Assembly (NCBI GenBank): GCA_963981015.1
Contig: CAXCCG010000002.1
Location: 8,291 to 72,290 of the forward strand
Reading direction: 5' to 3'
Origin: an uncultured Gammaproteobacteria bacterium
GTDB lineage: Bacteria > Pseudomonadota > Gammaproteobacteria > GCF-002020875
Length of the DNA stretch: 64,000 nt
In this document: positions 11,112 to 64,000 of the stretch, in pieces
Numbering within the stretch: position 1 is the stretch's first letter
Layout: the number at the start of each line of letters is the position of its first letter
Made by a program: the position numbers and the translations under genes
The notes under the pieces: model-generated
What the model was told of the DNA's origin: nothing
The model's input: only the letters and a program-made list of their open reading frames with translations
Databases searched by the model: none

Positions 11112-11251
11112 CCTGATCTTTAACTCCTAGTATTGAGTGCTCTTCTTAGATTGTGGGCAATGGTACTCTGCAGATCCTGTTCGCGCCTCAAACATCGCAC
11201 AAGAAACTGAAAATAGAGGGGTGCATAGTGGATCTTTGGAGTGCCAGAACG

Positions 11252-14200: not shown

Positions 14201-15127
14201 TCCCTCTCTCTTCCAGTGGAACTCCCCTACTTTCAAACCCGGTTCATCCTTGAACGCCTCGTCCCGCCGCAGAGAAGCCCGTCCCTTTTCCAACTTCCCG
14301 GAGAGCCACTCCCCCCAAAATTCAATATGGCCCGTCCCCTGGGCCAGACCTTTCATCTGGTTGGCTTCGCCACCAATCAGGGTAACCAAATGGGTCGAAG
14401 GGGCTTCAAGATACATCAGCCCATCCCAACCATTTTCACTCAGCAGATCACCAAACCACTCCAGCTTGAGTGTAACGGGTGAAGGGTTCTCTCCATCCAG
14501 CACCAAGGTTCCCGTTGCCTGATGGCGATAACCTGAGTTGATCCAATCGAAATGAATATCTGCTAATTTCCACTGTAATCCGCTTTCACTTCCCTCTCTC
14601 TGTTCTTGTAACAACTGCAGTGTTGCATTCTCAACAACCACACTTGGTTGCCTCAATAACCAGGAGAGGAGAACAGGCATATTACCCTCCTCTGCTGTAT
14701 TGATTTGTGCCATCGCAAGAATGGATTGAAATTGATGCTCGAATGCTATCGAAGGGTTACGCAGCAGAATGCCGGTAGATATCAGCTCTCCTGCACTGAG
14801 TGAGTGCAGCAGGTCAATCTTCAAGCTTCCACCAGCCAGCGTAACCTGAGCACTACCTCCCCCCTCTTTCTGCAGGCTGACACCAACCACTTCAATCTGT
14901 AAAAACCGACCATCCAGCTGTGCAGTGACCCCCTCAAACTCAATCGGCACACCCGTTTCTGCCTGCAGCCAATCTCTGATCTCTTGCTTATAAAAAGGCA
15001 GTGCCGGAAGAGAGAGGCGTAGCAGTATCACCAACACAGCCACAACCACTAACCCTGTTGAACACAGTATCCAGAACGTACCCCAAAGTGAACGTAAAAA
15101 TTGCTGGCTAGACGGGTACAACATCAA
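11252..15127 (-). CDS. yhdP: YhdP-family (AsmA-like) inner-membrane envelope protein
   Basis: 1291 aa with an N-terminal TM anchor. It sits between rng and tldD exactly as in E. coli (rng-yhdP-tldD). Confidence 0.8.
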   Translation of the reverse strand: MMLYPSSQQFLRSLWGTFWILCSTGLVVVAVLVILLRLSLPALPFYKQEIRDWLQAETGVPIEFEGVTAQLDGRFLQIEVVGVSLQKEGGGSAQVTLAGGSLKIDLLHSLSAGELISTGILLRNPSIAFEHQFQSILAMAQINTAEEGNMPVLLSWLLRQPSVVVENATLQLLQEQREGSESGLQWKLADIHFDWINSGYRHQATGTLVLDGENPSPVTLKLEWFGDLLSENGWDGLMYLEAPSTHLVTLIGGEANQMKGLAQGTGHIEFWGEWLSGKLEKGRASLRRDEAFKDEPGLKVGEFHWKREGEVAWRLQMEKLAWGGESDKQSHPTSALVKYLQDKTGQELILGAVDRIRLVPSPALSGLYATVMHGESGALVSGDLHDVKFRSYPNKESLFNQIESKMVLSNISVQGVKQAAGLGVAGVNGKLHLNEQEGFFMPANQPIFASLQHYYPDPQQLTLEQGLVSWRRRSRALLLSFRGIEGEIGALRLQGGGQLLLPGGGQSPFLDVNAHIQVQRIADLIQQLPERQLRPELVGWLNESLLSGKLIDGKIKLKGALNQFPFEQGEGLFQADLQVQDLYLKYADEWPTVTHSQAEIHFNNGAMRAKLKEGKLDGHPIHNISIHSDKIVDGPFEVHGQLVSESPKLLRTLENTPLSAQARQLNSVVTMSGYALLELDVVIPVDESPLQVDGRVELHDNQLNVAALDLQIDQLKGNVEFNHDGVMIEGVQGVMLGGPVLITAFTSETEQQPEVVIGLEGALQGAALEHWFGLAEMKAPLFQSESKTEWSGRLKIQREDIDIHLYSELQGVQLNTPEPFNKSAEARWPATLSMKVRSGEVESMQVSMPEHLHATLYKGKAAAPWKGRLFFGDREQTLPAGELRDGLELIGALEEIDLGAWYDLSVLMRQEGAVNHGLNSVRFGHLLLTADRASLFGQKLDQLVLKVERREQQSIHVELSSEQIEGSILVPHDSAEKWVVDLSHLQLGEEVSGMEEDSAVVVQSQRVEFDPSKMPAMDLSSQKTVINGIDFGTLALQAHSTKSGLFFDDVVLKSDVMNVSAQGSWLQREGKPISKFNINLYGDQLGSILSLFGYGGDIDRGKSSIHVKAEWPDRPTEFSLSTMEGELELSVEKGQLKDVDQGIGRVFGLLGIHTLVRRLTLDFSDLTDQGFPFDTIYGTFSLLDGNAHTRNLVLDGPAAKIKVEGRTGIVAQDYDQIVAVSPKISETLPATGALLAGPAGAVVGSVVLLYQKLFSEDEIALTRYTLTGQWDDPQLEEIRKVSAPVFEPEYP

Positions 15128-17161: not shown

Positions 17162-17209
17162 CGGCTGATTTTACCTCAATACCGCCTCCTGCTCGGATAC
17201 AATCTGGGG

Positions 17210-17683
17210 TTAATCGCTACGGTGGTAGGGGTGATGATTAACCACACTCCAAGCACGGTAAAGCTGCTCTGAGAGCACCACCCGAACCAGCGGATGGGGA
17301 AATGTGAGCGCCGATAGAGACCAGCGCTGGTCTGCCCGCTGCAGACACTTCGCTGAAAGCCCATCAGCCCCACCCACCAAGAGCGAGACACCACCACCGG
17401 TATGCATCCACCTCTCCAGTTGAGTCGCCAGTTTTTCTGTTGTCCAGGTTGCACCTTGTACATCCAGTGCAACCACTTGATCACCTTTGGGGATTGCCGC
17501 CAACATCCGTTTTCCCTCTTGTTCGACCCAGCGCTGTGGAGAGCCGCTACGCCCCCGTTTCTCAGCCTCAATCTCAACCAACGCCAAAGAACACTCGCGG
17601 GGCATTCTACGGGCATACTCGGCATACCCTTGCTCAACCCAAGCGGGCATCTTGCGTCCTACGGCAATTAAGGTGATTTTCAT
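17210..17683 (-). CDS. rlmH: 23S rRNA (pseudouridine1915-N3)-methyltransferase RlmH
   Basis: 157 aa, near-collinear with E. coli RlmH (SLSALTFPHPLVRVVL.EQLYRAWS...HPYHR). Confidence 0.92.
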   Translation of the reverse strand: MKITLIAVGRKMPAWVEQGYAEYARRMPRECSLALVEIEAEKRGRSGSPQRWVEQEGKRMLAAIPKGDQVVALDVQGATWTTEKLATQLERWMHTGGGVSLLVGGADGLSAKCLQRADQRWSLSALTFPHPLVRVVLSEQLYRAWSVVNHHPYHRSD

Positions 17684-17727
17684 TCAGGAGTTGCTGAAAA
17701 GTGCGCGAAAATTTGTGTAGCGGTACG

Positions 17728-18066
17728 CTACTCTTCGCGCTTGAAGTCCGTCCAGAATTTTTCCAGATTGTAGTAGTCACGGGTCTCCGGCAACATCACA
17801 TGAACCACCACCTCTCCCAGATCAACCAATACCCACTCTCCAGAATCTTCACCTTCTCGCCCCAAAGGCTGGTAATCCGCTCTCTTCGCCTCCATCGCAA
17901 CATTCTCGGCTAAAGATCGTACATGACGATTGGAGGTTCCACTGGCAATCACCAGTTTGCTGGTAACATCCGTCATCTCGGATACATCAACCACAGTAAT
18001 CTCATTTCCCTTCAACGCCTCGAGGGCATCGACCGCCAACTGTTCCAACTGATCTACACTTAACAT
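17728..18066 (-). CDS. rsfS: Ribosomal silencing factor RsfS
   Basis: 112 aa, DUF143/RsfS motifs. Synteny nadD-rsfS-rlmH. Confidence 0.9.
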   Translation of the reverse strand: MLSVDQLEQLAVDALEALKGNEITVVDVSEMTDVTSKLVIASGTSNRHVRSLAENVAMEAKRADYQPLGREGEDSGEWVLVDLGEVVVHVMLPETRDYYNLEKFWTDFKREE

Positions 18067-18075
18067 GTGTTTACT

Positions 18076-18726
18076 CTACTCTTCTAATGGGTATTGATTA
18101 ATAACAGATGCGCGAATTGTATCAGGCAATAGAAAGCGTGGGTCCTCACCTTGTGCAACCATTTCCCGAATCACCGTTGCAGAGATCTCCAACTGCGTCA
18201 CCGGCAGTAGCAAAATTCTCCCCCCTTGCTGCTGCGGTAGCTGGTAGAGATCCGTTACCTGATTACTTTCTCGTGCAGCCAACAACTCTGCAACACGCCC
18301 CTGTTGCGGCCTCTCAAAACCGGGACGGTGAGTGACTACAATATGGGCAAGACTCAGCAGTTCATCCCAGCGGTGCCAACTCTCAACCTGCAGAAAGGCA
18401 TCCATCCCCAAAATCAGACAGAGTGGGCGCTGTGAAAATGATGTAACCAGTGACTCTAGTGTCACCACCATCCAGGAGGGAGTGTCACGCTCCACCTCGC
18501 GCAGATCAACCACAAACTGCGGCACCTCTGCAGCCACCTGCTGCAGCCACTCTACACGCTGCTCCAAAGAGGCCAACGGTTGTGATCGATGTACTGGAAT
18601 CTTACTGGGGATCAGCCGCACATGATCCATCCCCAACTGTTCACACACCTCCAGTGCAGGACGCAGATGTCCGAAGTGGACCGGATCAAAGGTGCCGCCC
18701 AGAATTCCAATGGGTCGCATCGCCAC
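18076..18726 (-). CDS. nadD: Nicotinate-nucleotide adenylyltransferase
   Basis: 216 aa with the GGTFDPVHFGH motif. Confidence 0.9.
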   Translation of the reverse strand: MAMRPIGILGGTFDPVHFGHLRPALEVCEQLGMDHVRLIPSKIPVHRSQPLASLEQRVEWLQQVAAEVPQFVVDLREVERDTPSWMVVTLESLVTSFSQRPLCLILGMDAFLQVESWHRWDELLSLAHIVVTHRPGFERPQQGRVAELLAARESNQVTDLYQLPQQQGGRILLLPVTQLEISATVIREMVAQGEDPRFLLPDTIRASVINQYPLEE

Positions 18727-18743
18727 TCAGCACCCTATGGCAT

Positions 18744-18828
18744 GAGAATAGACGAAATAACCATTCGACAAAATTTGTCTCAAATCAGCTTTCCCTCGCT
18801 ACGACTTCTATTCCCGGACAAGCTCCTA
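18744..18828. repeat. Partial/degenerate copy of the palindromic repeat element (right-arm type). It supplies or abuts the proA TAG stop.
   Basis: tgtctcaaatcagctttccctcgctacgacttctattcccggacaagctcCTA is about 92% identical to the right arm of the copy at 245-292. Confidence 0.55.
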
Positions 18829-20079
18829 ACGGATATGACCATCTCCCAGTACGATGAATTTCTGCGAGGTGAGTCCCTCCAGCCCTACAGGACCACGTAC
18901 ATGAATCTTGTCGGTACTGATACCTATCTCCGCGCCCAGCCCATACTCAAAACCATCGGCAAAGCGGGTGGAGGCATTGACCATTACAGAGCTGGAGTCT
19001 ACTTCCGCCATAAAGCGTCGCGCACGTGCATAACTCTCGGTGACGATTGATTCTGTGTGACCTGAACTGTGCTGGTGGATATGGTCCATCGCAGCGTCGA
19101 TATCTGTCACCACACGAATGGAGAGTACCGGAGCCAGATACTCTTCATCCCAGTCTGCCTCGGTTGCTACAACCACGTCCGCAAGGATCTTTTGTGTCTG
19201 TTCACAGCCACGTAGCTCTACCCCCTCACTTTGGTACTGCGCTGCCAGTGGAGGCAGCACCTCTGCAGCAATACCCTCTGCTACCAACAGTGTCTCCATC
19301 GCATTGCAGACCCCGTAACGGTGGGTTTTTGCATTAAAGGCGATATCAATCGCCTTCTGCTGATTCGCCTGATCATCAATATAGACATGACAGATCCCGT
19401 TCAGGTGTTTAATCACCGGAATACGGGCACTCTCGGAAATACGTTCAATCAACCCCTTACCACCGCGCGGGATAATCACGTCAACATAGCGACTCATGGT
19501 AATCAACTCACCGACGGCTTCACGATCTGCCGTCTCCACCACCTGCACCGCATCAGAGGGAAGCCCCGCCTCTGTCAACCCCTGATGGATCAGTTTGGCA
19601 ATCGCCTGATTGGAGTTGAATGCCTCGGAACCACCACGAAGGATTGCCGCGTTACCCGATTTGAGACAGAGTGCTGCCGCATCTGCAGTCACATTGGGGC
19701 GCGATTCGTAGATGATACCGATGACCCCGAGAGGAACCCGCATTTTACCGACCTGAATACCGGAAGGACGATAGTTGAGACCAGAGATCTCACCCACAGG
19801 GTCCGGCAGCGTCGCAATCTGACGCAACCCTTCAGCCATGCCACTGACCCGCTCCTCATTTAACGCCAGACGATCTAGCAGTGCAGCATCGAGTCCATTT
19901 GCTTTACCGGCATCCAGATCTTTCTGGTTCTCTGCCAACAGCGCACTCATTGACTGCTCCAACAGAGCTGCGGTGATCTCCAGTGCACGATTTTTATCTG
20001 TAGTCTCTGCACGAGCCATTGCACGACTCGCACTGCGGGCCTGCTCACCCACCTGTTGCATATACTGTTTGATGTCCAT
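18826..20079 (-). CDS. proA: Gamma-glutamyl phosphate reductase
   Basis: 417 aa aldehyde dehydrogenase-fold ProA. Position between nadD and holA as in Pseudomonas. Confidence 0.93.
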
Positions 20080-20157
20080 CTTCTCTAAACCTACTCAGGG
20101 TAATTGTTCATTTGGCTCTGGTCAAAGCTGCGCCCAGACCCCACTTGTTACGATACT

Positions 20158-21204
20158 CTATAGCTTAGCATGGATAGGGAGTGAGGTTGGATTGGAGAGG
20201 TTAGAGGTCGCCTTCAGAACCAGATCTTCCAAACCACTCCAGGGGTCACCTTCCCCCATCCCTTTACCGGCACGATCTATTTCACCCGCTCGGCGTATCA
20301 ACTGGTAAATCTGTTGCTGTTTAAGTCGATTCAGGCCGGAGGTGAAGAGGGGCAACCTCCGCTTCCAGAGAGGCTGAGGGATATAGTCCAGCGGCTTGTG
20401 TGCTGCCAGACGTTGCAGGTTGCCTATAGCCGCCAGTTCACGCAGGTCTCTGACGATGGCCCAGAGTATAATCTGGATGGCGACGCCTTCCTCCTTCAGA
20501 CCATAAAGAATATGTAGTGCGCGCGCACGCTCACCACCAAGGATGGCATCCGCCAGTTGAAAGGGATCATAACGTGCGCTATCGGCTACAAGGTTCATCA
20601 CCATGGTCTCATCGACCTGATCTCCCTTGTTGGTGAGAAGAGAGAGTTTTTCAATCTCCTGTACCGCTGCCAGTAGATTGCCCTCGATCCGCTCTGCCAC
20701 CAGTGCCGCCGCACCGGGAGTAGCGTTAATACCAGCTACCCGCATCCGTTGCATAATCCAGTTGGGGATTTGACGCAACTCCATAGGCCAGATCTGTACC
20801 GTTACCCCAGCCTTTTCAATCGCTTTGAACCATTTGGCTCGCTGTGAGGCTCCATCCAGTTTTCCGCTACGGATAACCAATATCTTGTCATCCGGTGGAG
20901 AGTGACTCCACTCTGTGAGCATAGCCCCCCCCTCTTTGCCCGGTTTGCCGGTGGGGAGCCTGAGATCGATAATCTTCTTTTCTGCAAACAGAGAGAGTGC
21001 CGCCCCCTCTTGCTGCAGGTCCGACCAGTGGAACCCCGCGCCTACGGAGTAGAGAGCACGCTCTTCAAAGCCGGTCTGTCGTGCGGCCTGCAGTATTTGG
21101 TCGGCAGCCTCTTGCAGCAACAGTGGCTCATCACTACTGATCAGATAAATTGGAGCCAACGCCCGCTTGAGATGGTTCGCCAGTTGATCTGGACGAAGCT
21201 TCAT
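20158..21204 (-). CDS. holA: DNA polymerase III subunit delta
   Basis: 348 aa. Synteny leuS-lptE-holA. Confidence 0.85.
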   Translation of the reverse strand: MKLRPDQLANHLKRALAPIYLISSDEPLLLQEAADQILQAARQTGFEERALYSVGAGFHWSDLQQEGAALSLFAEKKIIDLRLPTGKPGKEGGAMLTEWSHSPPDDKILVIRSGKLDGASQRAKWFKAIEKAGVTVQIWPMELRQIPNWIMQRMRVAGINATPGAAALVAERIEGNLLAAVQEIEKLSLLTNKGDQVDETMVMNLVADSARYDPFQLADAILGGERARALHILYGLKEEGVAIQIILWAIVRDLRELAAIGNLQRLAAHKPLDYIPQPLWKRRLPLFTSGLNRLKQQQIYQLIRRAGEIDRAGKGMGEGDPWSGLEDLVLKATSNLSNPTSLPIHAKL

Positions 21205-21218
21205 GAGTCGAAGGCTCT

Positions 21219-21713
21219 CTATTTCTGACGCAAACTACGCATCAGGTCTCGTGTCACTTCACGCACCATTCGCTGACGCAGGTGCTTCTCTTCCTGACTC
21301 TTGCCCAGCAGTTGGTTGGCGCTATACTGATAATTTTCACGCTGCTTCAAGGTACCTTCACGCAATACGGTACCCTGCTTGTTACTCAGTTCCCAGTCCA
21401 ACTGATAGCTCAACTGATATTCGCTTACTTTTCCATCACTACCGACAGTTGCCACCTGACGAGAAAAGGACTCATTACTGAGCAACAGTATTGCTGAAGC
21501 CTCTTTCTCTGATCGTGCAGTATCTCCATTACTGTTACGAATGGCGTTTCCAACTGAATGGGTCAAGCCACTGGATACCCCCTGCCCCGCAATCCATGTA
21601 GAGGACATCTCATTCAGCAGTGAGACTTCACCACGCAGATGGAAGCCGCACCCTTGCAACAGCGTGAGGGCCAGAAGAAGAGGAGGCAATAAAACTGTTC
21701 TAATTGATTTCAT
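21219..21713 (-). CDS. lptE: LPS-assembly lipoprotein LptE
   Basis: Signal peptide plus lipobox LLQGC. Synteny after leuS. The start was trimmed to MKSIRTVLL. Confidence 0.75.
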   Translation of the reverse strand: MKSIRTVLLPPLLLALTLLQGCGFHLRGEVSLLNEMSSTWIAGQGVSSGLTHSVGNAIRNSNGDTARSEKEASAILLLSNESFSRQVATVGSDGKVSEYQLSYQLDWELSNKQGTVLREGTLKQRENYQYSANQLLGKSQEEKHLRQRMVREVTRDLMRSLRQK

Positions 21714-21788
21714 AAAGGTACCTGTCATGGTTTAGGTGCGCCCATTAAAATGCGCCTCTTTAAATACATTTTGCGTATGTTTTGACAT

Positions 21789-24254
<2,466 letters not shown>

Positions 24255-29433: not shown

Positions 29434-30369
29434 TCAGCTCAGCCGGATGATCTCAAGTAACAGTTCAGGAAAACCGAACCCTGCTGCCTTGGCGGCCATT
29501 GGCACTAAACTATGGTCTGTCATACCCGGTACCGTATTGACCTCCAGCAGCCAAGGTATACCTGCTTGATCCACCATCAGATCAACACGTCCCCAACCCC
29601 TGCAACCCAGGACCGTAAAGGCCTCCAGCGCAAGCTGCTGCAGGGCTGACTCTTCGACCTTACCCAATCCACAGGGACAGAGATATTCGGTACTCTCTGC
29701 CTGGTACTTGGCCTCAAAGTCATAAAAACCGTGCGGAGTTTTCAGTTGTATCGCCGGCAGTGCCCGCTCGCCAAGGATAGCCACCGTATACTCAGCACCC
29801 TCAATCCACTGTTCTGCAATTACCTCACCAGCATAACTTTTTGCCACATCCCATGCTTGCTGAAAGGTCTGCAGTGACTCTACTTTTACCATGCCAATAC
29901 TGGATCCTTCACAGACTGGCTTCACCATCAATGGTAGCCCCATCGCTTTAACAATCTCTTGCAGATCAGCGCCTTCACTCAACACCCGAAAATCTGGAGT
30001 TGGTAATTCAACCCCCTTCCAGAGCTGCTTTGTGCGTAACTTGTCCATTGCCAATGCAGATGCCATCACACCAGAGCCGGTATAGGGAAGCTTGAGTGTC
30101 TCCAATACACCCTGAATAACACCATCTTCTCCACCCCGCCCATGCAGCACCACAAAGGCGCGGTCAAACTCTAATAATGTTGAGATTTCACGCTCCGCCG
30201 GATCAAATGGAGCCGCATCACAACCTGCAGAGAGCAACCCCTGAAGCACCGCCTTTCCGCTATTGAGTGAGACCTCTCTCTCTGAGGCACTGCCCCCCAT
30301 CAATACAGCAATCTTTCCCAACGATTCAGGAGATTGTAGCTGATTCGAAAATTCATTCACGACAAACAC
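29434..30369 (-). CDS. ddl: D-alanine--D-alanine ligase
   Basis: 311 aa ATP-grasp fold, N-terminus KIAVLMGGSASEREVSL. Confidence 0.92.
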   Translation of the reverse strand: MFVVNEFSNQLQSPESLGKIAVLMGGSASEREVSLNSGKAVLQGLLSAGCDAAPFDPAEREISTLLEFDRAFVVLHGRGGEDGVIQGVLETLKLPYTGSGVMASALAMDKLRTKQLWKGVELPTPDFRVLSEGADLQEIVKAMGLPLMVKPVCEGSSIGMVKVESLQTFQQAWDVAKSYAGEVIAEQWIEGAEYTVAILGERALPAIQLKTPHGFYDFEAKYQAESTEYLCPCGLGKVEESALQQLALEAFTVLGCRGWGRVDLMVDQAGIPWLLEVNTVPGMTDHSLVPMAAKAAGFGFPELLLEIIRLS

Positions 30370-31256
30370 CTCTCGACTTGACCTACAATTCTAACCTCTC
30401 GCTGCAGACTTACCCCAAATTTCTGCTCAACCTCTTGTGCTACATGGTCCATCAGTGCCTCGATCTCCGTGGCTGTAGCCTCTCCCTGATGGATAATAAA
30501 ATTGGCATGCTGCTCTGAGACTCGTGCCCCCCCCAGGGTAAACCCTTTAAGTCCTGCGGCCTCGATCAAACGCCCGGCATGGTCCCCCTGTGGGTTTTTG
30601 AACACTGAACCACAACTATAGTATGACATTGGCTGGGTTGCGTTACGCTGTTTCAGCTGCTGCTGCATCTTTTCATGCGTCTCCTCACGGTCCAGGTTGG
30701 ACCTTTGAAAGATTGCTGAGAGAAACCAAAAGGGTGCCGTGTCATCAATACGAATAAGCGCTCGGTAGTTGGCCTGGAAACGGTCTGCCATCAATGTCTC
30801 CACTACACCACCACGATCCACCACTTCAACAGACTCTACCCGACTCCAGATCTCTTGACCAAAGGCTCCCGCATTCATCGCCAGTGCGCCACCCACAGAG
30901 CCCGGTATTCCTGCCAGAAAATCGAGGCCACGCCACTGTTCACTCCGAGCCACACGTGCCAGACGAGAAAGCGGGGCACCCGCCTCTGCATAGAGTCGAT
31001 CATTGTCACGCCATTCCAGCCGCTCCAGCGTATTTGCAAGCAGAATAACGGTACCCCGAAACCCTCCATCCCGTACCAGCAGATTACTTCCCTTACCCAC
31101 CCACAGCAGTGGCTCAGCTCCGGGAAGCTGCTGAAGGATCTCAACCAACTGTTGCCGGGTCTCCGGGATATAGAGTCGGTCTGCCACCCCTCCAACCCGC
31201 CAACTGGTATAAGGAGCCAGCGCTACATTCTCTAATCGTTGCGCCGTTGAATTCAC
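30357..31256 (-). CDS. murB: UDP-N-acetylenolpyruvoylglucosamine reductase
   Basis: 299 aa with an FAD-binding MurB domain. Confidence 0.9.
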
Positions 31257-55144: not shown

Positions 55145-56035
55145 CTAGTACCGCACCAAACTCTCTACTTTGAGCCACTCATCGTAGATTTTTTTCAATC
55201 TGAGCGCCTCTTTCTTGTCGCTCGCACTGTAGTCACGGAGGAGATAGTAGGTCTTTGAACCCTGCTGAACCGTCACGATCTGAAGCTTGAAGCTGGACTC
55301 CCCTAAATCTTTAACGATAGCATCAGCTCTTTTTTTGTTGGTAAATGCACCTACCTGAACATGGTTGTGACCCAGCTTTGACTCTCTCTTTTTAGCAGCT
55401 ACCGGAGCAACCGGAGTGACCGCCTGTTTTTGAGGCTTCACATCGGCAACGGCTCTCTCTGTAATTTTAGCTACAGGCAACTCTGACTTAGAGATCGATT
55501 GTTCCATCAGAATCCGCTCTTTTTCTGACTCAACGGTTTCCATACTACCACTCACCTTCTCATCCACATGTACTGTTTCAACCATCTTCTGTTGAGGCGG
55601 TTCCGATTGTGGCACTACAGATTTTTCGGTCATGGATGCAACCGATGAACCCTGTTTAACGGACTCTATTGGCTCAACGGAATCAATCACACTCTCAACA
55701 GGGCTGGACTCCACAATCTCTTCCTGAGCAATCGTAACAGCCTCCTTTTTAAGGACAGCAACCTCATCGACCGGCTGACTCATACTCTCTGGATTCAGTT
55801 GCTTAGACTTCGCTTCACGCTGTTCACGTGTCTCCTGCAAAAGATTTTCAAGCTCTTGATACTCCTGGAGAAAAGGATCTAAGCCCTGCTCCTCGTTCTT
55901 TACTACAGAGTCCGCTGCGAGGGGATCCTTTAATGGATCTGGTCCAGAGACATCTTCAGAAAAATAGAGTGATCCACCGATAACAGCGGATAAGGCAACT
56001 GCAAAGGCAATAAACAGGGGGGCATGTTGTGTCAT
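55145..56035 (-). CDS. SPOR-domain (septal peptidoglycan-binding) bitopic protein
   Basis: 296 aa. N-terminal TM segment, an acidic/Pro-Glu-rich linker, and a C-terminal SPOR-like fold (HVQVGAFTNKKRADAIVKDL...YYLLRDYSASDKKEA). Confidence 0.75.
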   Translation of the reverse strand: MTQHAPLFIAFAVALSAVIGGSLYFSEDVSGPDPLKDPLAADSVVKNEEQGLDPFLQEYQELENLLQETREQREAKSKQLNPESMSQPVDEVAVLKKEAVTIAQEEIVESSPVESVIDSVEPIESVKQGSSVASMTEKSVVPQSEPPQQKMVETVHVDEKVSGSMETVESEKERILMEQSISKSELPVAKITERAVADVKPQKQAVTPVAPVAAKKRESKLGHNHVQVGAFTNKKRADAIVKDLGESSFKLQIVTVQQGSKTYYLLRDYSASDKKEALRLKKIYDEWLKVESLVRY

Positions 56036-56214: not shown

Positions 56215-58302
56215 ATGTCTGATCCGCTTCTTCCTCCTCTTTTGCAGCTCTGCAAATTACACGGCTTCCCTCTAGCTGCGGAATCCTTGCTGGCAGGCAT
56301 TCCTCTGAAGCGTGGCTTACTGAATCCAGCACTGACCGTTCGAGCGCTACAGCGATCCGGTATCAACGGCAATATTGACAATCTTCCGCTAAAGAAGCTA
56401 TCAACCACACAGCTGCCGGCACTACTCTTTCTAAAGGAGAAGAAGGCTGTAGTGCTCAGCAAAATTGATGGAAAAACTGCCTATATCCTCGATAATGCGG
56501 GTCAAGAGGAGTCCATTGAACTCAAAAAACTCAAGCAACAGTACAATGGTCAAACACTGATCATTAATGGTGCACTGCCTCCAGCTGAAGGGGGGCAGGG
56601 AAAGCTCTGGTTCTGGAAAACCATCCTCAAGGGGTGGCCCATCTACAGCGAAAGTATATTTGCCTCTTTTATGGTCAATCTGTTTACCCTGGCCAGCCCT
56701 CTTTTCGTGATGAACGTCTATGACCGAGTGGTTCCCAACAATGCAATGGAGACCTTATGGGTGTTGGCAATTGGCGCGCTACTGGTTGCAGGATTTGATT
56801 TTCTGCTGCGTACGCTACGTGCCTACTTTATTGATGTGGCTGGAAAACGTGCTGATTTAGCTCTATCAGCCACCATCTTCGAACAACTCTTGGGTACCCG
56901 AATGGAGGCACGTGACCCGGCCTCCGGTGCCATCGCAAACCATATGCGTGAATTTGAGGGGCTTCGTGATTTCTTCACCTCTGCCTCACTCACAACTCTG
57001 ATTGACTTGCCATTTCTTGTCATCTTTCTTGCTGTCATCTGGATGATTGGCGGCCCCATTGTCTTTATTCCAATGACAGCCATTCCTATTGTGCTCATCT
57101 CTGCCCTGCTGCTGCAGATCCCGCTCCATCGCGCAGTGAGTGAAACCTTTAAAGAGGCTACACAAAAACACGCCATTCTGGTCGAGGCGATCTCTGCCGC
57201 CGAAACGATCAAAAGTGAAAATGCCGAGGGGGTCATGCAGCAGAAATGGGAAGGCTATGTCGAGAAGCTTGCCAAGTCGGGGATGAAAAGCAAGCTCTGG
57301 TCGACCCTAGCAATCAATCTGACAACCTTCACCCACCAAGCTGCAACCATCGCCATTGTGGTATTTGGTGTTCACCAGATTTCAGCAGGTGAGATGAGTA
57401 TTGGTGCCTTGATTGCCTGTACCATTCTCGCCGGTCGTGCACTGGCCCCTTTGGCAGGAATCGCCGCGCTACTGATTCGTTATCGACAATCCATGGTTGC
57501 TCTACGCGCACTTCATGGGGTAATGCAAAAACCGATCGAGCGCCCGGTCACGACCCATTTTCTACACCGTCCTCCACTACAAGGGGCTATCGAGCTACGG
57601 AAAGTCAGCTTTCAATATCCTAATCAGGAAGATCATGCTCTGCATGATCTCAATGCCACCATCCAACCGGGTGAACGGGTTGCCATTATTGGTCGTATTG
57701 GGTCGGGGAAAAGTACATTACAAAAATTGCTGCTCGGCCTCTACCAGCCACAGTCAGGCAGCCTGCTGATCGACCATACCCACTTAAATCAACTGGATCC
57801 TGCACAACTACGGCGCTCAATCGGTTATGTTTCACAAGAGATTGTCCTGTTCCGGGGCACACTTCGAGATAACATCAAACTTGGCAACCCACAGGCGAGT
57901 GATGAGGAGTTATTGGATGCCTCTCAACTGGCCGGTGTAGATACCTTTGTTCGGCAACACCCCAAAGGCTATGATCTGGAGGTTGGGGAACGGGGAGAGG
58001 GGCTCTCTGGCGGTCAACGGCAAGCGGTCGCGATGGCGCGTGCACTACTCCAAAAACCACCGATCATCCTGCTCGATGAACCCACCAGCTCGATGGATAA
58101 CAGTGCTGAACAGCAGTGGAAGGAGCGTTTCACCCCATTTCTGAAGGGGAGAACCCTGATATTGGTCACCCACCGCAGCTCTCTGCTCTCTCTGGCGGAC
58201 CGACTCATTATTCTGGATCAGGGTAAAATTGTCGGAGATGGCCCGAGAGACCGGGTTCTAGAGGCGTTAAACCAGGGTAAAGTCCTGCAAAACACAACAT
58301 AA
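56215..58302 (+). CDS. Type I secretion system permease/ATPase (ABC exporter with an N-terminal C39-like domain)
   Basis: 695 aa. A roughly 130-aa N-terminal C39-like domain, a 6-TM ABC transmembrane domain, and a C-terminal NBD (GRIGSGKST, LSGGQRQ, ILLDEPTS). Confidence 0.85.
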   Translation: MSDPLLPPLLQLCKLHGFPLAAESLLAGIPLKRGLLNPALTVRALQRSGINGNIDNLPLKKLSTTQLPALLFLKEKKAVVLSKIDGKTAYILDNAGQEESIELKKLKQQYNGQTLIINGALPPAEGGQGKLWFWKTILKGWPIYSESIFASFMVNLFTLASPLFVMNVYDRVVPNNAMETLWVLAIGALLVAGFDFLLRTLRAYFIDVAGKRADLALSATIFEQLLGTRMEARDPASGAIANHMREFEGLRDFFTSASLTTLIDLPFLVIFLAVIWMIGGPIVFIPMTAIPIVLISALLLQIPLHRAVSETFKEATQKHAILVEAISAAETIKSENAEGVMQQKWEGYVEKLAKSGMKSKLWSTLAINLTTFTHQAATIAIVVFGVHQISAGEMSIGALIACTILAGRALAPLAGIAALLIRYRQSMVALRALHGVMQKPIERPVTTHFLHRPPLQGAIELRKVSFQYPNQEDHALHDLNATIQPGERVAIIGRIGSGKSTLQKLLLGLYQPQSGSLLIDHTHLNQLDPAQLRRSIGYVSQEIVLFRGTLRDNIKLGNPQASDEELLDASQLAGVDTFVRQHPKGYDLEVGERGEGLSGGQRQAVAMARALLQKPPIILLDEPTSSMDNSAEQQWKERFTPFLKGRTLILVTHRSSLLSLADRLIILDQGKIVGDGPRDRVLEALNQGKVLQNTT

Positions 58303-58334
58303 TACTCAGCTAAACAACCCTCTTGAAACTGCCT

Positions 58335-60359
58335 CTAATTACTACGGATAATCCAGTTTCCCGTCTTACTGGAGTTGAGGTTCAGCTTATCCAGTTTGCG
58401 GTTAAAGCGCCTGAGCTGTTTTCCCAGCTCACCCTTTCTCTGACTTAACAGCTGACTCCGGTTCTTCAACTTCTGGTTATAACTGGAACCGTTATGGCTG
58501 GAGCGGTTCATTCTGCTCGCCAATAACAACCTGCGCTGCTCATGACGATTCAATTGCCCGCCACGCTCTTTCGGTTTCTGCCTTGGGGCCATCTGCGTAT
58601 TACCTTGTGACAATACCAGAGTAGGTTTAACCGGGGGCGGAGCGAGCATTGCCACTTCTGTCTGCACCACTCGACTGTCTACCACAACCGGTTTCCGGCC
58701 TCTTGCCTCATCCACTGCATTCAACACTACCCAGCCTGCATCTTTCATCTGGTCATAAGCCACATTCCAACTTGATGTTTTCTGAGTCATTGCCAAGTCT
58801 GGTGATGTAGTGGAAACTGAAGCCTCTGAGGCTGTAGCCACCGTCTCTGTCACCACAGTGCCGAACTCCGGTCCAGCCCCCCCACCATCAGTGACTATAG
58901 CGGTTTCAACAGAACTGCCGATCCCCATAATCGTGTCTGCAACCTTACCCGGTGCAGCCAGTACCCGGTCAATAAAGACCAGATCTCCAGCATCCTCTTC
59001 CGTCTCAAAACTATTCAGTATCTCTTCGGGAATATCCAAATAATTGAGCAGTACGCCAAGATGAGCAATCACCCGATAGACTCCAAGCCTTACACTGGTG
59101 TCATCTTGCAATACTGCCAACTTGGCCTGCAGTAGCGCATCATCTGCCGCCATAATCGTCATTACATCGGCTTCACCCAGCTTGAACTGCTCTTGAACCG
59201 ATTGTGCGTTTTCATGTGCGATTTGATACTGCTTTTTGCTCGTCATCAATAACTCTCGAGTAACTTCCAACCCATTCCAGTAGAGTTTTAACTGCTCTTC
59301 CATGCTGTGGCGTGCAATATTCAACTGCTCCTGACTATCAACCACGCTCTTCGCCATCTCTCTTCTGCGAGATTGATCTGCCCCCCCCCGAAACAGGTTA
59401 TATTTCATTTTCAGCAGAGCCGTATAATAGTCCTCTTGCCCCTCATTACCTCCATTATTGAGGTCACGCCCCCCTTTGAGTTCAAAATCAAGAGTTGGTA
59501 ACAAACCGGCACGGGTACCCTCAAAATCCGCCTTGATTGCATTCAGGTTCGCTCTCGCACTCTTCAAAATCGGATTATTTACCAATAACACTTCTATCGC
59601 TTGTGTATATTCAGCGGGCACCCCCCAGTCGGGGACGTCCATTGCCTTGTTCAATACTTCAGATGGCGCCAAGCCAACCACCTTGGTGTATCGTGCCAAC
59701 GCATCTCTATACTCACCTCTGGCAGAAATGAGTGCTGATTGTGCAGCCAGCAACGGAGTTTCTGCTGCAACCAGCTCTGATTTTCCAGCCCCCCCAGCCT
59801 CTACTTTCTCCTGAATCTGCATAAACAGCTTGTTATGCTGATTGACGTTCTCTACAGTCCATCGGATCACCCGTTGAAGGCGATAAATTTCATACCAGGA
59901 CTCAATCGTCTGCAATGCCACAGAGATGCGGATTTCATCCAGCTGAACGGTAGAAACCTCTAACATTTGGCCGCTACGATCTACCGCAGCTGCTGCCGCT
60001 CCTCCATCAAAAAGTGGCTGTGTTAAGGTGACTGTTGTACTTTTTTTCATCATCTTTGTAGAATCAGAGGTCGGTTTATCTCTGTATTCACGGCCTGAAT
60101 CCAGACTCACATCTAGCGTTGGAAGCCATCCTGCGACCGCTTGCCCCAGCTGTTCATCTGCAATACCCACACCATGGTAGGCTGACTTAATTTCCGGATT
60201 ATTTTGCAACGCCAAATGAATCGCTTGTGACAATGAGTGAGCATAGCTTGCCATCGGAGTTGAAAGTACCGCAACCAGAGCGGTCACTACAACCCTCTTT
60301 GCTACGTGCCGACGAGCACCTATTAATTTTACATTTCTATCATTCATCTTACTCACCAC
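58335..60359 (-). CDS. TolC-family outer-membrane efflux protein (T1SS OMF type) with a roughly 235-aa non-TolC C-terminal extension ending in a basic tail
   Basis: 674 aa. Signal peptide, a TolC-like two-repeat region to about residue 440, then a Thr/Ser/Val-rich segment and a Lys/Arg-rich C-terminus. Confidence 0.75.
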   Translation of the reverse strand: MVSKMNDRNVKLIGARRHVAKRVVVTALVAVLSTPMASYAHSLSQAIHLALQNNPEIKSAYHGVGIADEQLGQAVAGWLPTLDVSLDSGREYRDKPTSDSTKMMKKSTTVTLTQPLFDGGAAAAAVDRSGQMLEVSTVQLDEIRISVALQTIESWYEIYRLQRVIRWTVENVNQHNKLFMQIQEKVEAGGAGKSELVAAETPLLAAQSALISARGEYRDALARYTKVVGLAPSEVLNKAMDVPDWGVPAEYTQAIEVLLVNNPILKSARANLNAIKADFEGTRAGLLPTLDFELKGGRDLNNGGNEGQEDYYTALLKMKYNLFRGGADQSRRREMAKSVVDSQEQLNIARHSMEEQLKLYWNGLEVTRELLMTSKKQYQIAHENAQSVQEQFKLGEADVMTIMAADDALLQAKLAVLQDDTSVRLGVYRVIAHLGVLLNYLDIPEEILNSFETEEDAGDLVFIDRVLAAPGKVADTIMGIGSSVETAIVTDGGGAGPEFGTVVTETVATASEASVSTTSPDLAMTQKTSSWNVAYDQMKDAGWVVLNAVDEARGRKPVVVDSRVVQTEVAMLAPPPVKPTLVLSQGNTQMAPRQKPKERGGQLNRHEQRRLLLASRMNRSSHNGSSYNQKLKNRSQLLSQRKGELGKQLRRFNRKLDKLNLNSSKTGNWIIRSN

Positions 60360-60361: not shown

Positions 60362-60715
60362 TTAATTTGGTGAAATTACCGGTTTTCTGCGAAGAAAATA
60401 GTGCCCGTTACCATCTACACCAGATTCAGATTGATGTCTTTTTTTTGCCACAATCAATGCAGGTTTCACTATTTTTTTGGGACTCTTTTCCCCCTGCCTG
60501 CTTTTTTTATGAGCTGTGATGGGGTCACTATTGCGCCTGACCTTTCCCTCTAATAATTCACTGACCGGAATCTTTCGTGCAGGATAGGCTGCAGTAGAGT
60601 TTGATCGGGCCATCGATTGCTCCACAACACCTCTTGACTCTCTATTTTTCAACTCCTGCTCATCCAAACGAGAGTAGAGGTTCAGTGCAAAGCCCGCTAT
60701 TGATAACAGATCCAT
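60362..60715 (-). CDS. Hypothetical small basic protein
   Basis: 117 aa, no TM segment, Lys/Arg-rich. Translationally coupled position (2-bp gap) upstream of the TolC-like gene. Confidence 0.35.
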   Translation of the reverse strand: MDLLSIAGFALNLYSRLDEQELKNRESRGVVEQSMARSNSTAAYPARKIPVSELLEGKVRRNSDPITAHKKSRQGEKSPKKIVKPALIVAKKRHQSESGVDGNGHYFLRRKPVISPN

Positions 60716-60753: not shown

Positions 60754-62002
60754 CTACCAACTGAGGCTCACACCACCGTTGACCAATGGCGTCCCTGCTG
60801 CACTATTCCAACTGGTTCCAAGACTGAACTGCGTAGTATCTGTCAAACTACCCTTCATCCCGACCGCCACACCTGTTTCTCCTTCATAGTAGCTAGTACC
60901 CATACCAATCGAAAAGTGACGATTCGGGGCTGGAGGTGGAAGTGCTGCCAATGCTGCCACTGAAGCAACCCCTCCATAGGCGATATCGAGCTGACTGCGG
61001 TTAACCCGCATCCATTGGATCTACACCATCTGCAACCCCCATTACACGGCTGGGAGCACCTGTTATAGGGTGGGCAAAACTGGCCCCCTTTTCGTCCAGA
61101 GTAATATAGGTACTGTTTACACCTCCAGAGAGTATTGTTTGATCATTTTGTACCACCAAGCCATGTGCAATACCGGTTGTTGGGTTATTAACTGTCAGAT
61201 TGATCGCCCCATTGGTTGCACCTGACAGGCTCAAGCCGTCAACAATTAACCCCCCTGTAATAGAAGTACCGGTACTATCGACCACCAGGGATTTCATACC
61301 ACTTTGGAGCGTAACTGCATTACCGTTGACTACAGTAGCTCCTGTGGTGTTCCCTACATTTACTGCACCCGTACCGGTACCTAAATTTGTTGTAGCGGCC
61401 GTAGTTGCATTGATGTTAGTTACCCCAATGATATTGGTTGTACTGCCGACATTATCATTACCAATATTGGTTGCCCTTGCCACACTATTATCAGTATTGA
61501 TATTGGTTGTGGTGCCTACAATATCGGTAGTCACACCTTGTACTAATGTATTGGTATCTCCAACAGTAATCTGACTGGTGCTACTGGTCACCAAACTAAT
61601 ATCTCCTGCAGTCACATTACCAATACTGACTGCTCCAGTGCCATTCACAAAATCGGTCACTGAATTGATTGAGGTCGCTCCATTCTGTCCCACTGAAAAA
61701 AGATTACTATTACTATTATTGTTGATCAAAAAGCTATCCGTTTTGGCTGTCATCGCTGTGGTATCCAGAATTACATTATTGGTACTCCTGGCCGCATCAT
61801 CTGCATAAAGACCCACTTCTGATCCACCACCTGTTCCAACATAGGTCGTCACCAAACCTGCACTTGAATCAGTCAGTGCCCAGCCACTGGCAATATTGTC
61901 ACCTTCTCCAACCAGTACCATAGGTGCTGCACTCAGCTGCATCGCAACCAGCATTCCGATCAGTACTATGTTTTTCTGCAGTGTCTCAATTTTCACGTTC
62001 AT
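60754..62002 (-). pseudogene. Trimeric autotransporter adhesin (YadA-like). A +1 frameshift separates the passenger (61001..62002) from the C-terminal beta-barrel anchor (60754..61011).
   Basis: The passenger has a signal peptide and Thr/Asn/Gly-rich head repeats, ending ...GVADGVDPMDAG*. The next frame encodes a YadA-anchor ending ...GVSLSW. Deleting one C from the CCC run at 61005-61007 restores a continuous ...DPMDAVNRSQL neck. Confidence 0.65.
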
Positions 62003-62034: not shown

Positions 62035-62760
62035 TTAACGACCACGAATACAACCGCCATTCTCAAAGCAGATCTGACTCCTCTGTTTCCTCTTTTTGAT
62101 CTGTTTTTTCTTGGCCTGCTGGATCTGGTTATCCACATTGACGCCTTGTCTTGCAAGCGCCCACTCCTGCGGGTTGTAGTTTCCAAAAATAGCTGTCGCA
62201 ATCTCTTTAGGAATATTGGTTTGTGCCGTAGAGACCACCATTCCGCTACCAATATCAATCATTCTCGCATTCACAATCACACCGCTTTGATGGTTGGTAT
62301 AGGTACCCGATAACACCAAATTAATATTGTGATGACTCCGCAACTCTTTCACTTCACGACTACGGATAAAATCTCCCAACTCACTGATCTGGATGGCAGG
62401 CATCGATTTAAAATCGGTTACCTTGAATCCCCGAATCTGCATTTCGTGAATCATGTTGTCCGCCAGCAACTCACCAAGCTTATTGGTATGTTTCAGGTTC
62501 TCCAAATTGACGAATGAGGTAATCGCAACCGGGTTGTTACTGACGTTATAGGTATCCCGGTTGAGGGATATTTGCTCTGCCAAATACTGTGTATATTCAT
62601 TAATCTGCCCCGGATTCACCTCAGGTTGCACGACCTGATATTTCAGGCTTTTCGACTGAAACATCGGTACACCGGATATACCACTACACCCCGTGAGCAG
62701 CACCGCCATCAGAGGCAACACTACGATATTCTGGATTCTCTTCTTCATTTTCTGATCCAC
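62035..62760 (-). CDS. Lipoprotein with a TolB-N/LpoB/CsgG-like C-terminal region (paralog 1)
   Basis: 241 aa. Lipobox LLTGC, paralogous to 62769..63437 (about 40% identity over about 110 aa), basic C-terminal tail. Confidence 0.5.
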   Translation of the reverse strand: MDQKMKKRIQNIVVLPLMAVLLTGCSGISGVPMFQSKSLKYQVVQPEVNPGQINEYTQYLAEQISLNRDTYNVSNNPVAITSFVNLENLKHTNKLGELLADNMIHEMQIRGFKVTDFKSMPAIQISELGDFIRSREVKELRSHHNINLVLSGTYTNHQSGVIVNARMIDIGSGMVVSTAQTNIPKEIATAIFGNYNPQEWALARQGVNVDNQIQQAKKKQIKKRKQRSQICFENGGCIRGR

Positions 62761-62768: not shown

Positions 62769-63437
62769 TTAACGTATCTTCATGACCCGTTGATCTGGCA
62801 TCGGCACATTGTGTCGAATCACCTTGACCACAGGCCGACTGATCTCCATATCTGACATCAGTCCAAAGTATTCATCGGTTGTAATAAAGGCCTGTGCAGT
62901 CGAGACCACAACGCTTGTCTCCCAATCCGTAAGACGCATGGTGATCGTCATACCATCACTATGTTCTGAGAGGGTTCCTGCCAACATGTAGGTAATATCA
63001 AAATCATTGCGCAATTCGGTGACATCATTACTGGTCACAAAGTCACCCTCATCCGTCACCTGCAACATCTTCATCAGATGGAAATCAATGGTGTCGTATC
63101 CACGTGTCTGTAATTCATGGACCAGGCCACTGCTCAATGAGCGCCCGATTCGGTTGGTCTCTTTAGGGTTATCGAGGTCAACGATAGAGGCTACCACCAC
63201 ACTATTACCATCCATTCTGAGTTTGTGGTGGTTATCCTTTAGCTGATTGGCCAAGCTATTGGTGATCTGTTTCATCCGCTTTGAATAGGCGGGCATCTCT
63301 GCCTCTGTGGTGATCGTATGCTGCGGTGACACCACATCTCCGTTAAACCCCAGGCTACTCCAGAATGTTGCCGCACTCACCTCAGTCACGAAACAGAGAC
63401 CTGCAATCAATACTGTTTTTAACTGTAAATTTTTCAT
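62769..63437 (-). CDS. Secreted (periplasmic) protein, paralog 2 of the same family
   Basis: 222 aa, cleavable signal peptide (VSA|AT), conserved VVVASIVDLDNP...MLAGTLSEHSDGMTITMRL block. Confidence 0.5.
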   Translation of the reverse strand: MKNLQLKTVLIAGLCFVTEVSAATFWSSLGFNGDVVSPQHTITTEAEMPAYSKRMKQITNSLANQLKDNHHKLRMDGNSVVVASIVDLDNPKETNRIGRSLSSGLVHELQTRGYDTIDFHLMKMLQVTDEGDFVTSNDVTELRNDFDITYMLAGTLSEHSDGMTITMRLTDWETSVVVSTAQAFITTDEYFGLMSDMEISRPVVKVIRHNVPMPDQRVMKIR

Positions 63438-63826
63438 TGTTGCCCCTTTACGACCTGCACACCTTCAACAGTTGGTTGTGATTTGCACTGACTTCCGACC
63501 CCTTCAGCACGTACAGAGACCGGATAGTCACCACAGCTACCTCCACTACACCCTGGTTGATACGGCATCTTCTTAATCTGCTTGATACATTCAGCGACCT
63601 CTAAATCCACATATTCAATCAAGGGTTCCGCCTGACACGTCGGGCAGTAGTAGTCACTACTCTGCATGGCACTCTGCCCTGCCCTATCCTGTGAATACGA
63701 TGCTGCTTGAAGCATAGGTAAGGTTCTACTTAACGAACCACAACCCGCACTGAGCAGTGCAATAAGCACTACGGAGATCGCTGTTTTTATACCTGTTCGC
63801 TTTTGACCGTCCATTCTCTTGACCAT
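63434..63826 (-). CDS. Cys-rich small lipoprotein
   Basis: 130 aa, lipobox LSAGC. There are 8 further Cys including CPTC, and CSGGSC. It overlaps the downstream gene by 4 bp (operon head). Confidence 0.45.
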   Translation of the reverse strand: MVKRMDGQKRTGIKTAISVVLIALLSAGCGSLSRTLPMLQAASYSQDRAGQSAMQSSDYYCPTCQAEPLIEYVDLEVAECIKQIKKMPYQPGCSGGSCGDYPVSVRAEGVGSQCKSQPTVEGVQVVKGQQ

Positions 63827-64000
63827 CTTTAGTTATTCCTGAGCGTCTGTTTTCTGACATTCTTATTCCACACAATTACTTAGCTACAATTATTGTGCCA
63901 ATAATAAATAAGATATTGTTTGTTATTAAATTTACAGGAATAGCGGTGTAAATTCACACCGCTTTAGCAGGAGACCGGTTACTCGGTGTAAGCCAGCATC

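Follow-up and report, generated by a model that had tools for sequence, protein, structure and literature searches.

A TolC-family channel with a basic C-terminal tail and a candidate scattered Lap/Lss-type exporter in an uncultured gammaproteobacterium

Two type I secretion systems (T1SSs) are the closest described relatives of the locus reported here. In LapBCE-LapA of Pseudomonas fluorescens, which KEGG lists as an 'adhesin transport system', an ATP-binding cassette (ABC) transporter with a C39-like domain is combined with a LapC-type adaptor, a LapE-type outer-membrane channel and a giant repetitive adhesin as cargo, and one preprint describes LapA-type adhesins as staying lodged in LapE by an N-terminal retention module (bioRxiv 10.1101/198937). 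In the LssB-LssD-TolC/RtxA system of Legionella pneumophila, the gene for the channel is not linked to lssBD, and that for the adaptor long escaped notice (PMC6959600). Here we analyze a 64,000-nucleotide stretch of DNA from an uncultured gammaproteobacterium (GenBank assembly GCA_963981015.1, contig CAXCCG010000002.1, positions 8,291 to 72,290; the whole stretch is hereafter the window), in which the gene for an ABC exporter converges, at 56215-60359, on the gene for a TolC-family channel with a C-terminal extension (hereafter TolC-ext). We consider it probable that the two proteins are parts of a complete Lap/Lss-type T1SS whose genes are scattered over ~19 kb, and that the tail of the channel is an accessory periplasmic tether and not an adaptor. 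A giant acidic adhesin with cadherin and Big_9 domains is the likely cargo.

The convergent gene pair and its probable partners beyond the window

The pair and the spacer between its genes are laid out as follows:

56215..58302, plus strand: LssB/LapB-type T1SS ABC permease/ATPase with a degenerate N-terminal C39-like domain, 695 aa (TIGR03375, ABC_membrane, ABC_tran)
58303..58334, no strand: spacer of 32 nt between the convergent stop codons (from the open reading frame coordinates)
58335..60359, stop codon included, minus strand: TolC/LapE-type outer-membrane channel with a C-terminal extension, TolC-ext, 674 aa (OEP twice, TIGR01844)

Both genes belong to T1SSs, as an earlier note made from the sequence of this stretch had proposed. 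The exporter scores 920 bits (cut-off 693) against TIGR03375, the model of LssB-type T1SS permease/ATPases to which the Legionella protein also belongs, and its sub-threshold match to Peptidase_C39 (20.2 bits) is as weak as would be expected of a non-catalytic C39-like domain. TolC-ext passes TIGR01844 marginally over aa 40-438 (228.6 bits; cut-off 225.15), contains two OEP repeats and is predicted to adopt the TolC fold; its homologues bear the JGI name 'adhesin transport system outer membrane protein'. Its start codon is either the GTG at 60359 or the ATG at 60347 called on contig L001, and its signal peptide ends between MASYA and HSLSQ. Over the 15,665 positions compared, contig L001, an independent assembly, shows 6 differences from the window. 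Five of the six are clustered in 28 nt of the TolC body (59322..59349) and change four residues, MAKSVVDSQEQLNIA to MANSVVYRQEQFNIA; this cluster may reflect microdiversity or a patch of recombination, or may be an artefact of assembly.

The open reading frames and their convergence are likewise as the earlier note gave them, with a gap of 32 nt rather than 33, and we found no convincing terminator in this spacer. Also as described there, a SPOR-domain protein gene lies on one side of the pair and a gene for a 117-aa basic protein on the other, with no adaptor or substrate gene beside it. The ABC gene is 76-88% identical across six related lineages and converges on the TolC-ext gene in every lineage examined, one of which has a methyl-accepting chemotaxis protein gene inserted between the two. 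In relatives the 3' ends of the genes overlap, by 11 nt in L004 (2535-2545) and by 29 nt in L007 (12204-12232); there the TolC-ext tail has extended up to and into the opposite-strand ABC gene.

Searches with tblastn, using eight LapC/HlyD-type adaptor queries from other loci, gave no match in the 64-kb window and none within the fetched sequence (up to 10 kb each side) around the TolC-ext and ABC genes of the relatives L001-L008. Such a gap is uncommon among the other taxa that we compared. A full-length LssB-like ABC gene lies within the fetched flank of TolC homologues in 38 of 77 of their loci, and in 35 of these 38 a LapC-type adaptor gene is found no more than 500 nt from it; in the window's clade there is none within the fetched 10 kb. 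The surroundings of ABC paralogues (65-67% identity) revealed a second, canonical T1SS locus in related metagenome-assembled genomes (MAGs), including the MAG that holds L008. In this locus A (L086-L088) the adaptor gene (434-437 aa) and the ABC gene diverge, and there are also genes for an RTX protein, a channel of the sister group of TolC-ext and a lipoprotein in which a TolC-family body is fused to a SPOR domain (OEP-SPOR). Its adaptors are 43-48% identical to the lapC-type adaptors of other taxa. When a locus-A adaptor was used as the query, matches fell into layers, with the locus-A adaptors at 73-100% identity, ~12 clusters at 64-71% and a background at 54% or below.

The adaptor P0173 (437 aa; HH_AprE, Beta-barrel_AprE), which is 70% identical to the locus-A adaptor, is encoded on scaffolds of ~98 kb (L092-L094). 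Two of these, L093 and L094, share with contig L001 an end region that is 99.9-100% identical at the nucleotide level, and since L001 is nearly identical to the window, these scaffolds represent the window's own population. Projected onto window coordinates, the P0173 gene falls at ~73816-75129 of the minus strand. A distance of 9.8 kb separates it from the end of the window and one of 13.5 kb from the start of TolC-ext downstream, and between it and TolC-ext are an adhesin orthologue, a flagellin gene and flgM. The island is arranged in the same way on the contig of a more distant relative, CAYFOR010000009.1 (48.8 kb, the contig that holds L007), with adaptor P0174 at 29529-30875, an adhesin at 17173-22866, genes for flagellin, FlgM and FliS, TolC-ext at 12167-14392 and the ABC gene at 10114-12195; here 6.7 kb separate the adaptor gene from the adhesin gene downstream of it, and 15 kb from TolC-ext. 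The P0173-type adaptor gene has no adjacent ABC gene and the window-type ABC gene has no adjacent adaptor, and the two bracket one adhesin gene. The parts also occur in similar numbers of clusters (~12 for the adaptor, ~15 for the ABC exporter and ~13 for TolC-ext), and JGI names their homologues lapC, lapB and lapE, respectively. An adaptor supplied in trans by locus A, which we had considered, was superseded: locus A accounts for only ~4 ABC clusters, whereas the window-type locus has ~15, and the island later proved to contain a dedicated group of adaptors.

The adaptor missing from the window is therefore an effect of the window edge and of gene order: the window ends inside flgM, which cuts off the adaptor and cargo genes. 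The earlier note had treated the lack of a membrane-fusion protein gene as a feature of the system, and this view did not hold. It had also named the finding that would speak against it, an adaptor gene immediately outside the window and co-oriented with the ABC gene; what we found comes close to this, at a distance of 9.8 kb and in the orientation of the channel gene rather than the ABC gene. The search it suggested for an orphan HlyD-type adaptor and an adhesin substrate located both P0173 and a giant adhesin gene. Once the adaptor beyond the window is counted, the locus has the three components that define a T1SS.

In the window's population, the genes run in the order CHASE2 cyclase, LapC-type adaptor, 293-aa protein, GAF-GAF-PAS nucleotide cyclase, TPR protein, adhesin, flagellin, flgM, sigma-54-type promoter, a six-gene unit ending in TolC-ext, and the ABC gene. 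The two nucleotide-cyclase genes are thus within ~1 kb on either side of the adaptor, with the 293-aa gene separating it from the GAF-GAF-PAS cyclase; judging by this gene content, cyclic-nucleotide control may replace LapD/LapG. The cyclase-flanked adaptor region (L089 6503-14737; L092-L094 6642-14620) is conserved between distant lineages, and a gene resembling that of the magnetotaxis protein MtxA and genes for large TPR proteins lie nearby.

The L007 adhesin has 1897 aa, a pI of 4.05, a net charge of -260 and Big_9, cadherin and VCBS domains, and its N-terminal 280 aa share 70% identity with the orthologue in the window's population. On the scaffolds both the adhesin gene and the flagellin gene look broken up; we rejected pseudogenisation as the cause, as the breaks are 100-N scaffold gaps.

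The locus departs from LapBCE-LapA in that its genes are scattered over ~19 kb among flagellin, flgM and FlgO-like genes with sigma-54-like promoters, nucleotide-cyclase genes flank the adaptor, the channel has a 235-aa tail, the match of the adhesin to the retention module is sub-threshold and the fetched flanks hold no LapG or LapD gene. It also inverts the arrangement in Legionella: there the ABC gene has the adaptor gene as its neighbor and the channel gene is at another site, whereas here its neighbor is the channel gene and it is the adaptor gene that is distant.

The C-terminal tail of the channel

The extension of TolC-ext was noted earlier as unusual for TolC proteins, and our comparisons bear this out, in that it is an orphan module limited to one small clade. 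We rejected the possibility that it is a frameshift artefact or a separate gene, as it forms one uninterrupted open reading frame with the channel body in the window, in L001 and in ~13 homologues. TolC-ext can be divided as follows:

59043..60359, minus strand: channel body, aa 1-439, with signal peptide and canonical TolC fold (AlphaFold2, Foldseek)
58776..59042, minus strand: acidic linker rich in Thr, Val, Ser and Glu, aa 440-528 (predicted local distance difference test, pLDDT, <50 in AlphaFold2; charge)
58707..58769, minus strand: conserved motif W-x2-AY-x2-MKDAGWVV-x-NA-x-DE, aa 531-551 (family alignment)
58365..58559, minus strand: strongly basic amphipathic helix with a heptad/leucine-zipper pattern, aa 601-665 (AlphaFold2, alignment)

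We built an AlphaFold2 model of TolC-ext on 13 family sequences. The channel body is modeled with confidence over aa ~40-440 (pLDDT mostly 70-90); each protomer has four strands and long helices. Its best Foldseek matches are the TolC proteins of E. coli and Klebsiella, ST50 and OprM (E ~5e-21, ~420 aligned columns, TM(target) 0.65-0.70). This predicted fold of aa 40-440 matches E. coli TolC and the solved outer-membrane factors (1ek9, 7ng9, OprM), whose chains have 402-493 residues; none of them carries a basic coiled-coil tail of 230-320 aa such as is predicted here.

Within the extension the model consists of low-confidence coil and helices, without beta domains. Confidence falls below a pLDDT of 50 across aa 442-602, save for a short weak helix at the motif, and the acidic linker is probably disordered. 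A single helix then spans aa 605-673, with 10-residue block means of pLDDT of 62-88 over aa 601-660. Hydrophobic residues are conserved in it at positions 613, 617, 620, 627, 631, 638, 645, 652 and 656, a heptad spacing like that of a leucine zipper, and on the model and this pattern the helix probably forms a coiled coil within the TolC trimer. It is 65 residues long in the window protein and ~140 in the subfamily of 718-755 aa (in P0004 aa 534-675, pLDDT block means 61-84).

The charge of the extension changes sign at the motif. Before it the net charge is -14 in the window protein and -5 to -23 across the family; after it the net charge is +20 (pI 12.0) in the window protein and +11 to +27 in every family member. 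The extension has 235 aa in the window protein and 189-324 aa across the family, with 20-40% identity, and the motif residues G542, W543, V545 and N547 are invariant in 13 of 13 sequences. A motif of the MKDAGWVVxNA type also terminates the paralogue P0014.

A search of 5.8 billion proteins returned ~13 full-length homologues of TolC-ext (615-755 aa, 42-60% identity), all of which carry the tail, the alignments spanning 81-96% of the query with the tail included. Next in rank were ordinary TolC relatives of 430-480 aa with at most 30% identity. Members of the family occur in 3 of 185,579 species-representative genomes, all three of them uncultured marine MAGs labelled Gammaproteobacteria or Piscirickettsiaceae, and no member has lost the tail. 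With a profile of the tail only, HMMER found four matches among 1.84 billion representative proteins, namely two family representatives and two short fragments, and thus no tail homologue outside the family. Apart from chance similarities of a coiled-coil-like kind, neither PDB sequences nor Pfam at E <= 1 matched the tail, and no SPOR, OmpA-like or other domain was recognized in 11 family tails. To judge from these sequence searches, the tail is a true orphan, confined to a single small group of marine bacteria, all of them uncultured.

Other channels, in related loci and in other organisms, carry additions at the same end. OEP-SPOR lipoproteins of 615-634 aa are encoded in L086 (12379-14241), L087 (12201-14048) and L088 (13304-15208), and P0024, P0028 and P0029 are fusions to an OmpA domain (OEP-OmpA). 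Like TolC-ext, these proteins have a C-terminal periplasmic add-on on a TolC-family body; unlike them, the window tail has no SPOR, OmpA or other recognizable fold, and direct comparison showed no homology between the tail and the OEP-SPOR proteins. A long, acidic stretch likewise extends the C-terminus of the sister-group channel of locus A, whose identity to the TolC-ext body is 45%. In L086 and L087 the OEP-SPOR gene is followed by a gene for a 'mini-HlyD' of 239-243 aa; L088 also contains a gene for an LPP20 (FlgP-like) lipoprotein. Neither tailed LapE proteins nor TolC-SPOR (OEP-SPOR) fusions were described in the literature that we searched.

Neighboring genes and the flagellar context

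Upstream of TolC-ext, and beyond the ABC gene, the window contains these features:

55145..56035, minus strand: SPOR-domain protein with an N-terminal transmembrane (TM) helix, a short conserved helix, a Pro/Glu/Lys-rich linker and the SPOR domain (26.9 bits)
60362..60715, minus strand: 117-aa basic protein without a family match; its stop codon is 2 nt ahead of the GTG at which TolC-ext starts
60754..62002, minus strand: short trimeric-autotransporter-like gene (passenger 61001..62002, YadA anchor 60754..61011; YadA_anchor 38 bits)
62035..62760, minus strand: FlgO-family lipoprotein with lipobox LLTGC (PF17680 FlgO, E 1e-40)
62769..63437, minus strand: second FlgO-family protein, with signal peptide (PF17680 FlgO, E 1e-32)
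63434..63826, minus strand: 130-aa Cys-rich lipoprotein without a family match, first gene of the six-gene operon (from the open reading frame list)
63885..63900, minus strand: sigma-54-type promoter-like site TGGCACAATAATTGTA, 59 nt upstream of the operon's first start codon

The six minus-strand genes, from the Cys-rich lipoprotein through the two FlgO proteins, the YadA-anchor gene and the 117-aa protein to TolC-ext as the last, are separated by gaps or overlaps of at most 38 nt, and this order is kept in L002, L003 and L005. Upstream of the unit are flgM and then flagellin. L002 and L005 have homologues of the 117-aa protein, of 127 and 148 aa, at this position. The YadA-anchor gene is split by a +1 G frameshift near 61006-61012, at GATGCGGGTTAACC, with the same extra G in L001, and is a single open reading frame of 428-440 aa in L002 and L005; in the window it is either a real pseudogene or a frameshift site. 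The module of FlgO, YadA-anchor and small-protein genes is found only in the subclade of the window, P0002 and P0003. It is absent from the subclade of 718-755 aa, the 117-aa protein included, and since TolC-ext there follows flgM or fliS directly, comparison of these gene orders marks the module as an insertion and not an obligate partner of TolC-ext. TolC homologues of other taxa have no FlgO, YadA-anchor or small-protein homologues nearby.

The promoter-like site is the sole match to TGGCAC-N5-TTGYW in the 64-kb window, a pattern that had at least one match in 22 of 100 shuffles. Equivalent sites are at the same place in L003 and L005, and near-consensus sites precede flagellin and flgM in L007. 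These sigma-54-type sites at the operon, flagellin and flgM suggest that the channel may be expressed along with the flagellar programme. As sigma-28 promoters upstream of the operon or of TolC-ext we found only matches with three mismatches, and this candidate was set aside for the sigma-54-like sites. The 5' untranslated region that follows the sigma-54-like site contains, at 63844-63858 on the minus strand, a motif that reads GTCAGAAAACAGACG in the window and L003 and GTCAATTAACAGACG in L005. Directly 3' of the flgM stop and ahead of the sigma-54-like site there is an inverted repeat, GCGGTGT-N7-ACACCGC (63941..63964, minus strand), which from its sequence and position is probably the flgM terminator; if it is real, the six genes downstream would form a separate transcription unit.

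On the far side of the pair, the SPOR protein gene is always divergent from the ABC gene and is conserved in L004, L007 and L008, together with the QEYQELERLLEETRAQR helix. This protein is probably not part of the exporter. It occupies the relative position that the adaptor gene has in the paralogous locus A, where SPOR is fused to a channel protein; a functional link to the exporter is possible but unsupported, and we rejected the idea that it is a degenerate adaptor (hhalign probability 4%). Ten other open reading frames of the window that we scanned, the three largest included, are housekeeping genes (YhdP, IleRS, LeuRS, MurJ, TldD/PmbA, RNase G, a response-regulator/TPR protein, FtsZ and MraW).

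Readings of the tail and what it would mean

We prefer the reading in which the tail would serve as a periplasmic tether, by analogy with other channels that carry such additions. The exporter would work like LapBCE, with an ABC dimer and an adaptor hexamer docking onto the trimeric channel and the adhesin threaded out through it C-terminus first. The tail would be a flexible tether that ends in a basic coiled-coil rod, ~10 nm long here and ~20 nm in the long subfamily. This rod would bind an anionic partner in the envelope, either peptidoglycan or the inner-membrane surface or possibly the acidic adhesin, and the tether would keep the channel, and the adhesin lodged in it, in place. We favor a tether because the charge architecture and the heptad pattern are conserved, because a TolC trimer would present three copies of the helix, and because related MAGs and other organisms fuse wall-binding SPOR or OmpA domains to the same end of the channel. 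In related loci, these domains appear to fill such a holding role. The suggestion in the earlier note of a periplasmic or peptidoglycan-interacting module is plausible.

Braun's lipoprotein, Lpp, offers a comparison for such a rod. Lpp is a trimeric periplasmic coiled-coil spacer with a lipid anchor and a C-terminal Lys for covalent attachment to the wall. The tail is predicted to resemble it in having a heptad helix of ~60 residues, present in three copies beneath the outer membrane. Unlike Lpp, the tail has no lipid anchor, the last residue of the family's tails is N, R, Q, Y, P, D or G and not Lys, and the helix is joined to the channel by a low-confidence segment of ~160 residues (aa 442-602).

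Several observations weigh against this account. The partnership of adaptor, ABC exporter and channel is based on co-location and family only, and synteny is weak evidence because the genomes are close (ABC genes 76-88% identical) and unrelated neighbors (SPOR, amidotransferase, bc1 and sspAB genes) are just as conserved in them. The adhesin of L007 matched no model of a T1SS C-terminal target domain, and its match to the LapA retention module (19.5 bits) is below the cut-off of 50. There is no LapG or LapD gene in the fetched flanks and island, which is as far as that search went, no genome-wide search having been made. Neither PDB nor Pfam searches recognized a peptidoglycan- or lipid-binding fold in the tail, and most of the extension was modeled at low confidence. 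Finally, the TolC-ext gene is grouped with FlgO-like, YadA-anchor or flagellar genes in all lineages, and by this context its function could be tied to them.

The best-surviving alternative, which we regard as unlikely but deserving of weight, is that the basic tail grips the acidic adhesin or the adhesin's periplasmic N-terminal plug, as a built-in retention or chaperone device that replaces or supplements control of the LapG/LapD type. The retention of LapA-type adhesins within LapE is a precedent, the island has no LapG or LapD gene in its fetched part, and the N-terminus of the adhesin is 70% conserved between lineages. The contrast in charge is also large, with the adhesin at a pI of 4.05 and a net charge of -260 and the tail at +11 to +27 in every family member. 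The case for it is electrostatic alone, however; the tail's own acidic linker could neutralize the basic helix, and the retention-module match, at 19.5 bits, is below the cut-off of 50.

Less likely still is that the adjacency of the ABC and TolC-ext genes is inherited synteny only, and that TolC-ext serves the FlgO/YadA-anchor/flagellar module, or acts as a general TolC, with the tail linking it to an outer-membrane structure associated with the flagellum. TolC-ext is indeed the last gene of an operon with a sigma-54-type site, two FlgO-family proteins and a YadA-anchor gene, and in other lineages it directly follows flgM or fliS. Unrelated neighbors are equally syntenic, and TolC-ext evolves much faster (42-60% identity) than the ABC exporter (76-88%). 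Yet the pairing of TolC and LssB-like ABC genes is not random, given its occurrence in 38 of 77 loci of other taxa, the FlgO module is missing from half of the clade while the ABC gene is always present, and the closest paralogue of TolC-ext sits in a canonical RTX/adaptor/ABC locus.

It is improbable that the extension is neutral in function, the product of read-through into the spacer toward the convergent ABC gene, disordered and free to drift. Low pLDDT over most of the extension, its variable length (189-324 aa) and low identity (20-40%), the overlap of its 3' end with the ABC gene in relatives and the lack of tail homologues elsewhere would all fit such drift. Against it stand the invariant motif residues, the conserved heptad positions and an acidic-then-basic order of charge that is kept in 11 of 11 aligned members despite their divergence, and no member is without the tail.

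Least probable is the fused adaptor that the earlier note had entertained, in which long helices would span the periplasm to the ABC exporter and dispense with a membrane-fusion protein; no adaptor gene lies within 10 kb in any lineage, the predicted helix (~65 residues here, ~140 in the long subfamily) would reach roughly 10-20 nm if straight, and the sole faint hhalign alignment of the extension falls on the adaptor alpha-hairpin region, but that alignment, against nine adaptor sequences, has a probability of 5.3%, the extension has no TM or hydrophobic anchor and no lipoyl or beta-barrel domain (Pfam, AlphaFold2), sister-group channels with long C-terminal extensions coexist with adaptor genes in locus A, and a bona fide LapC-type adaptor without an ABC gene of its own is present in the island of the window's population as well as in that of a distant relative. 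Known adaptors, as in the HlyD and MacA structures, form a sealed hexameric tube, which on general structural grounds three tails would be unable to do.

If the tether that we prefer is taken further, the tail with its acidic linker and basic coiled coil would be an undescribed class of built-in T1SS-channel module, a periplasm-spanning rod that anchors or gates the channel or holds the adhesin without LapG/LapD, under a sigma-54 flagellar programme that couples adhesin display to the flagellated pole. We put this forward tentatively, as a doubtful extension of the data.

For annotation, the locus is a caution that an apparently 'adaptor-less' T1SS in a window or on a short contig can be a scattered system. 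With the adaptor and cargo genes 13-17 kb away, annotation pipelines based on adjacency would call this one incomplete. The biologically new element is the channel tail. TolC-family proteins are usually regarded as bare channels that rely on partners for their positioning, and the tailed clade, together with the OEP-SPOR and OEP-OmpA fusions, indicates that channels can bear periplasmic add-ons of their own. As the lineage is uncultured, the impact of these findings will be limited until there is work in a heterologous host, of the kind reported for the Desulfovibrio DvhA system (PMC10690286). Should the basic coiled coil prove to retain the adhesin, or to fasten the channel to the wall or membrane, giant adhesins would be kept on the surface in a new and simple way, and the tail would provide a small handle for studying how such channels are positioned.

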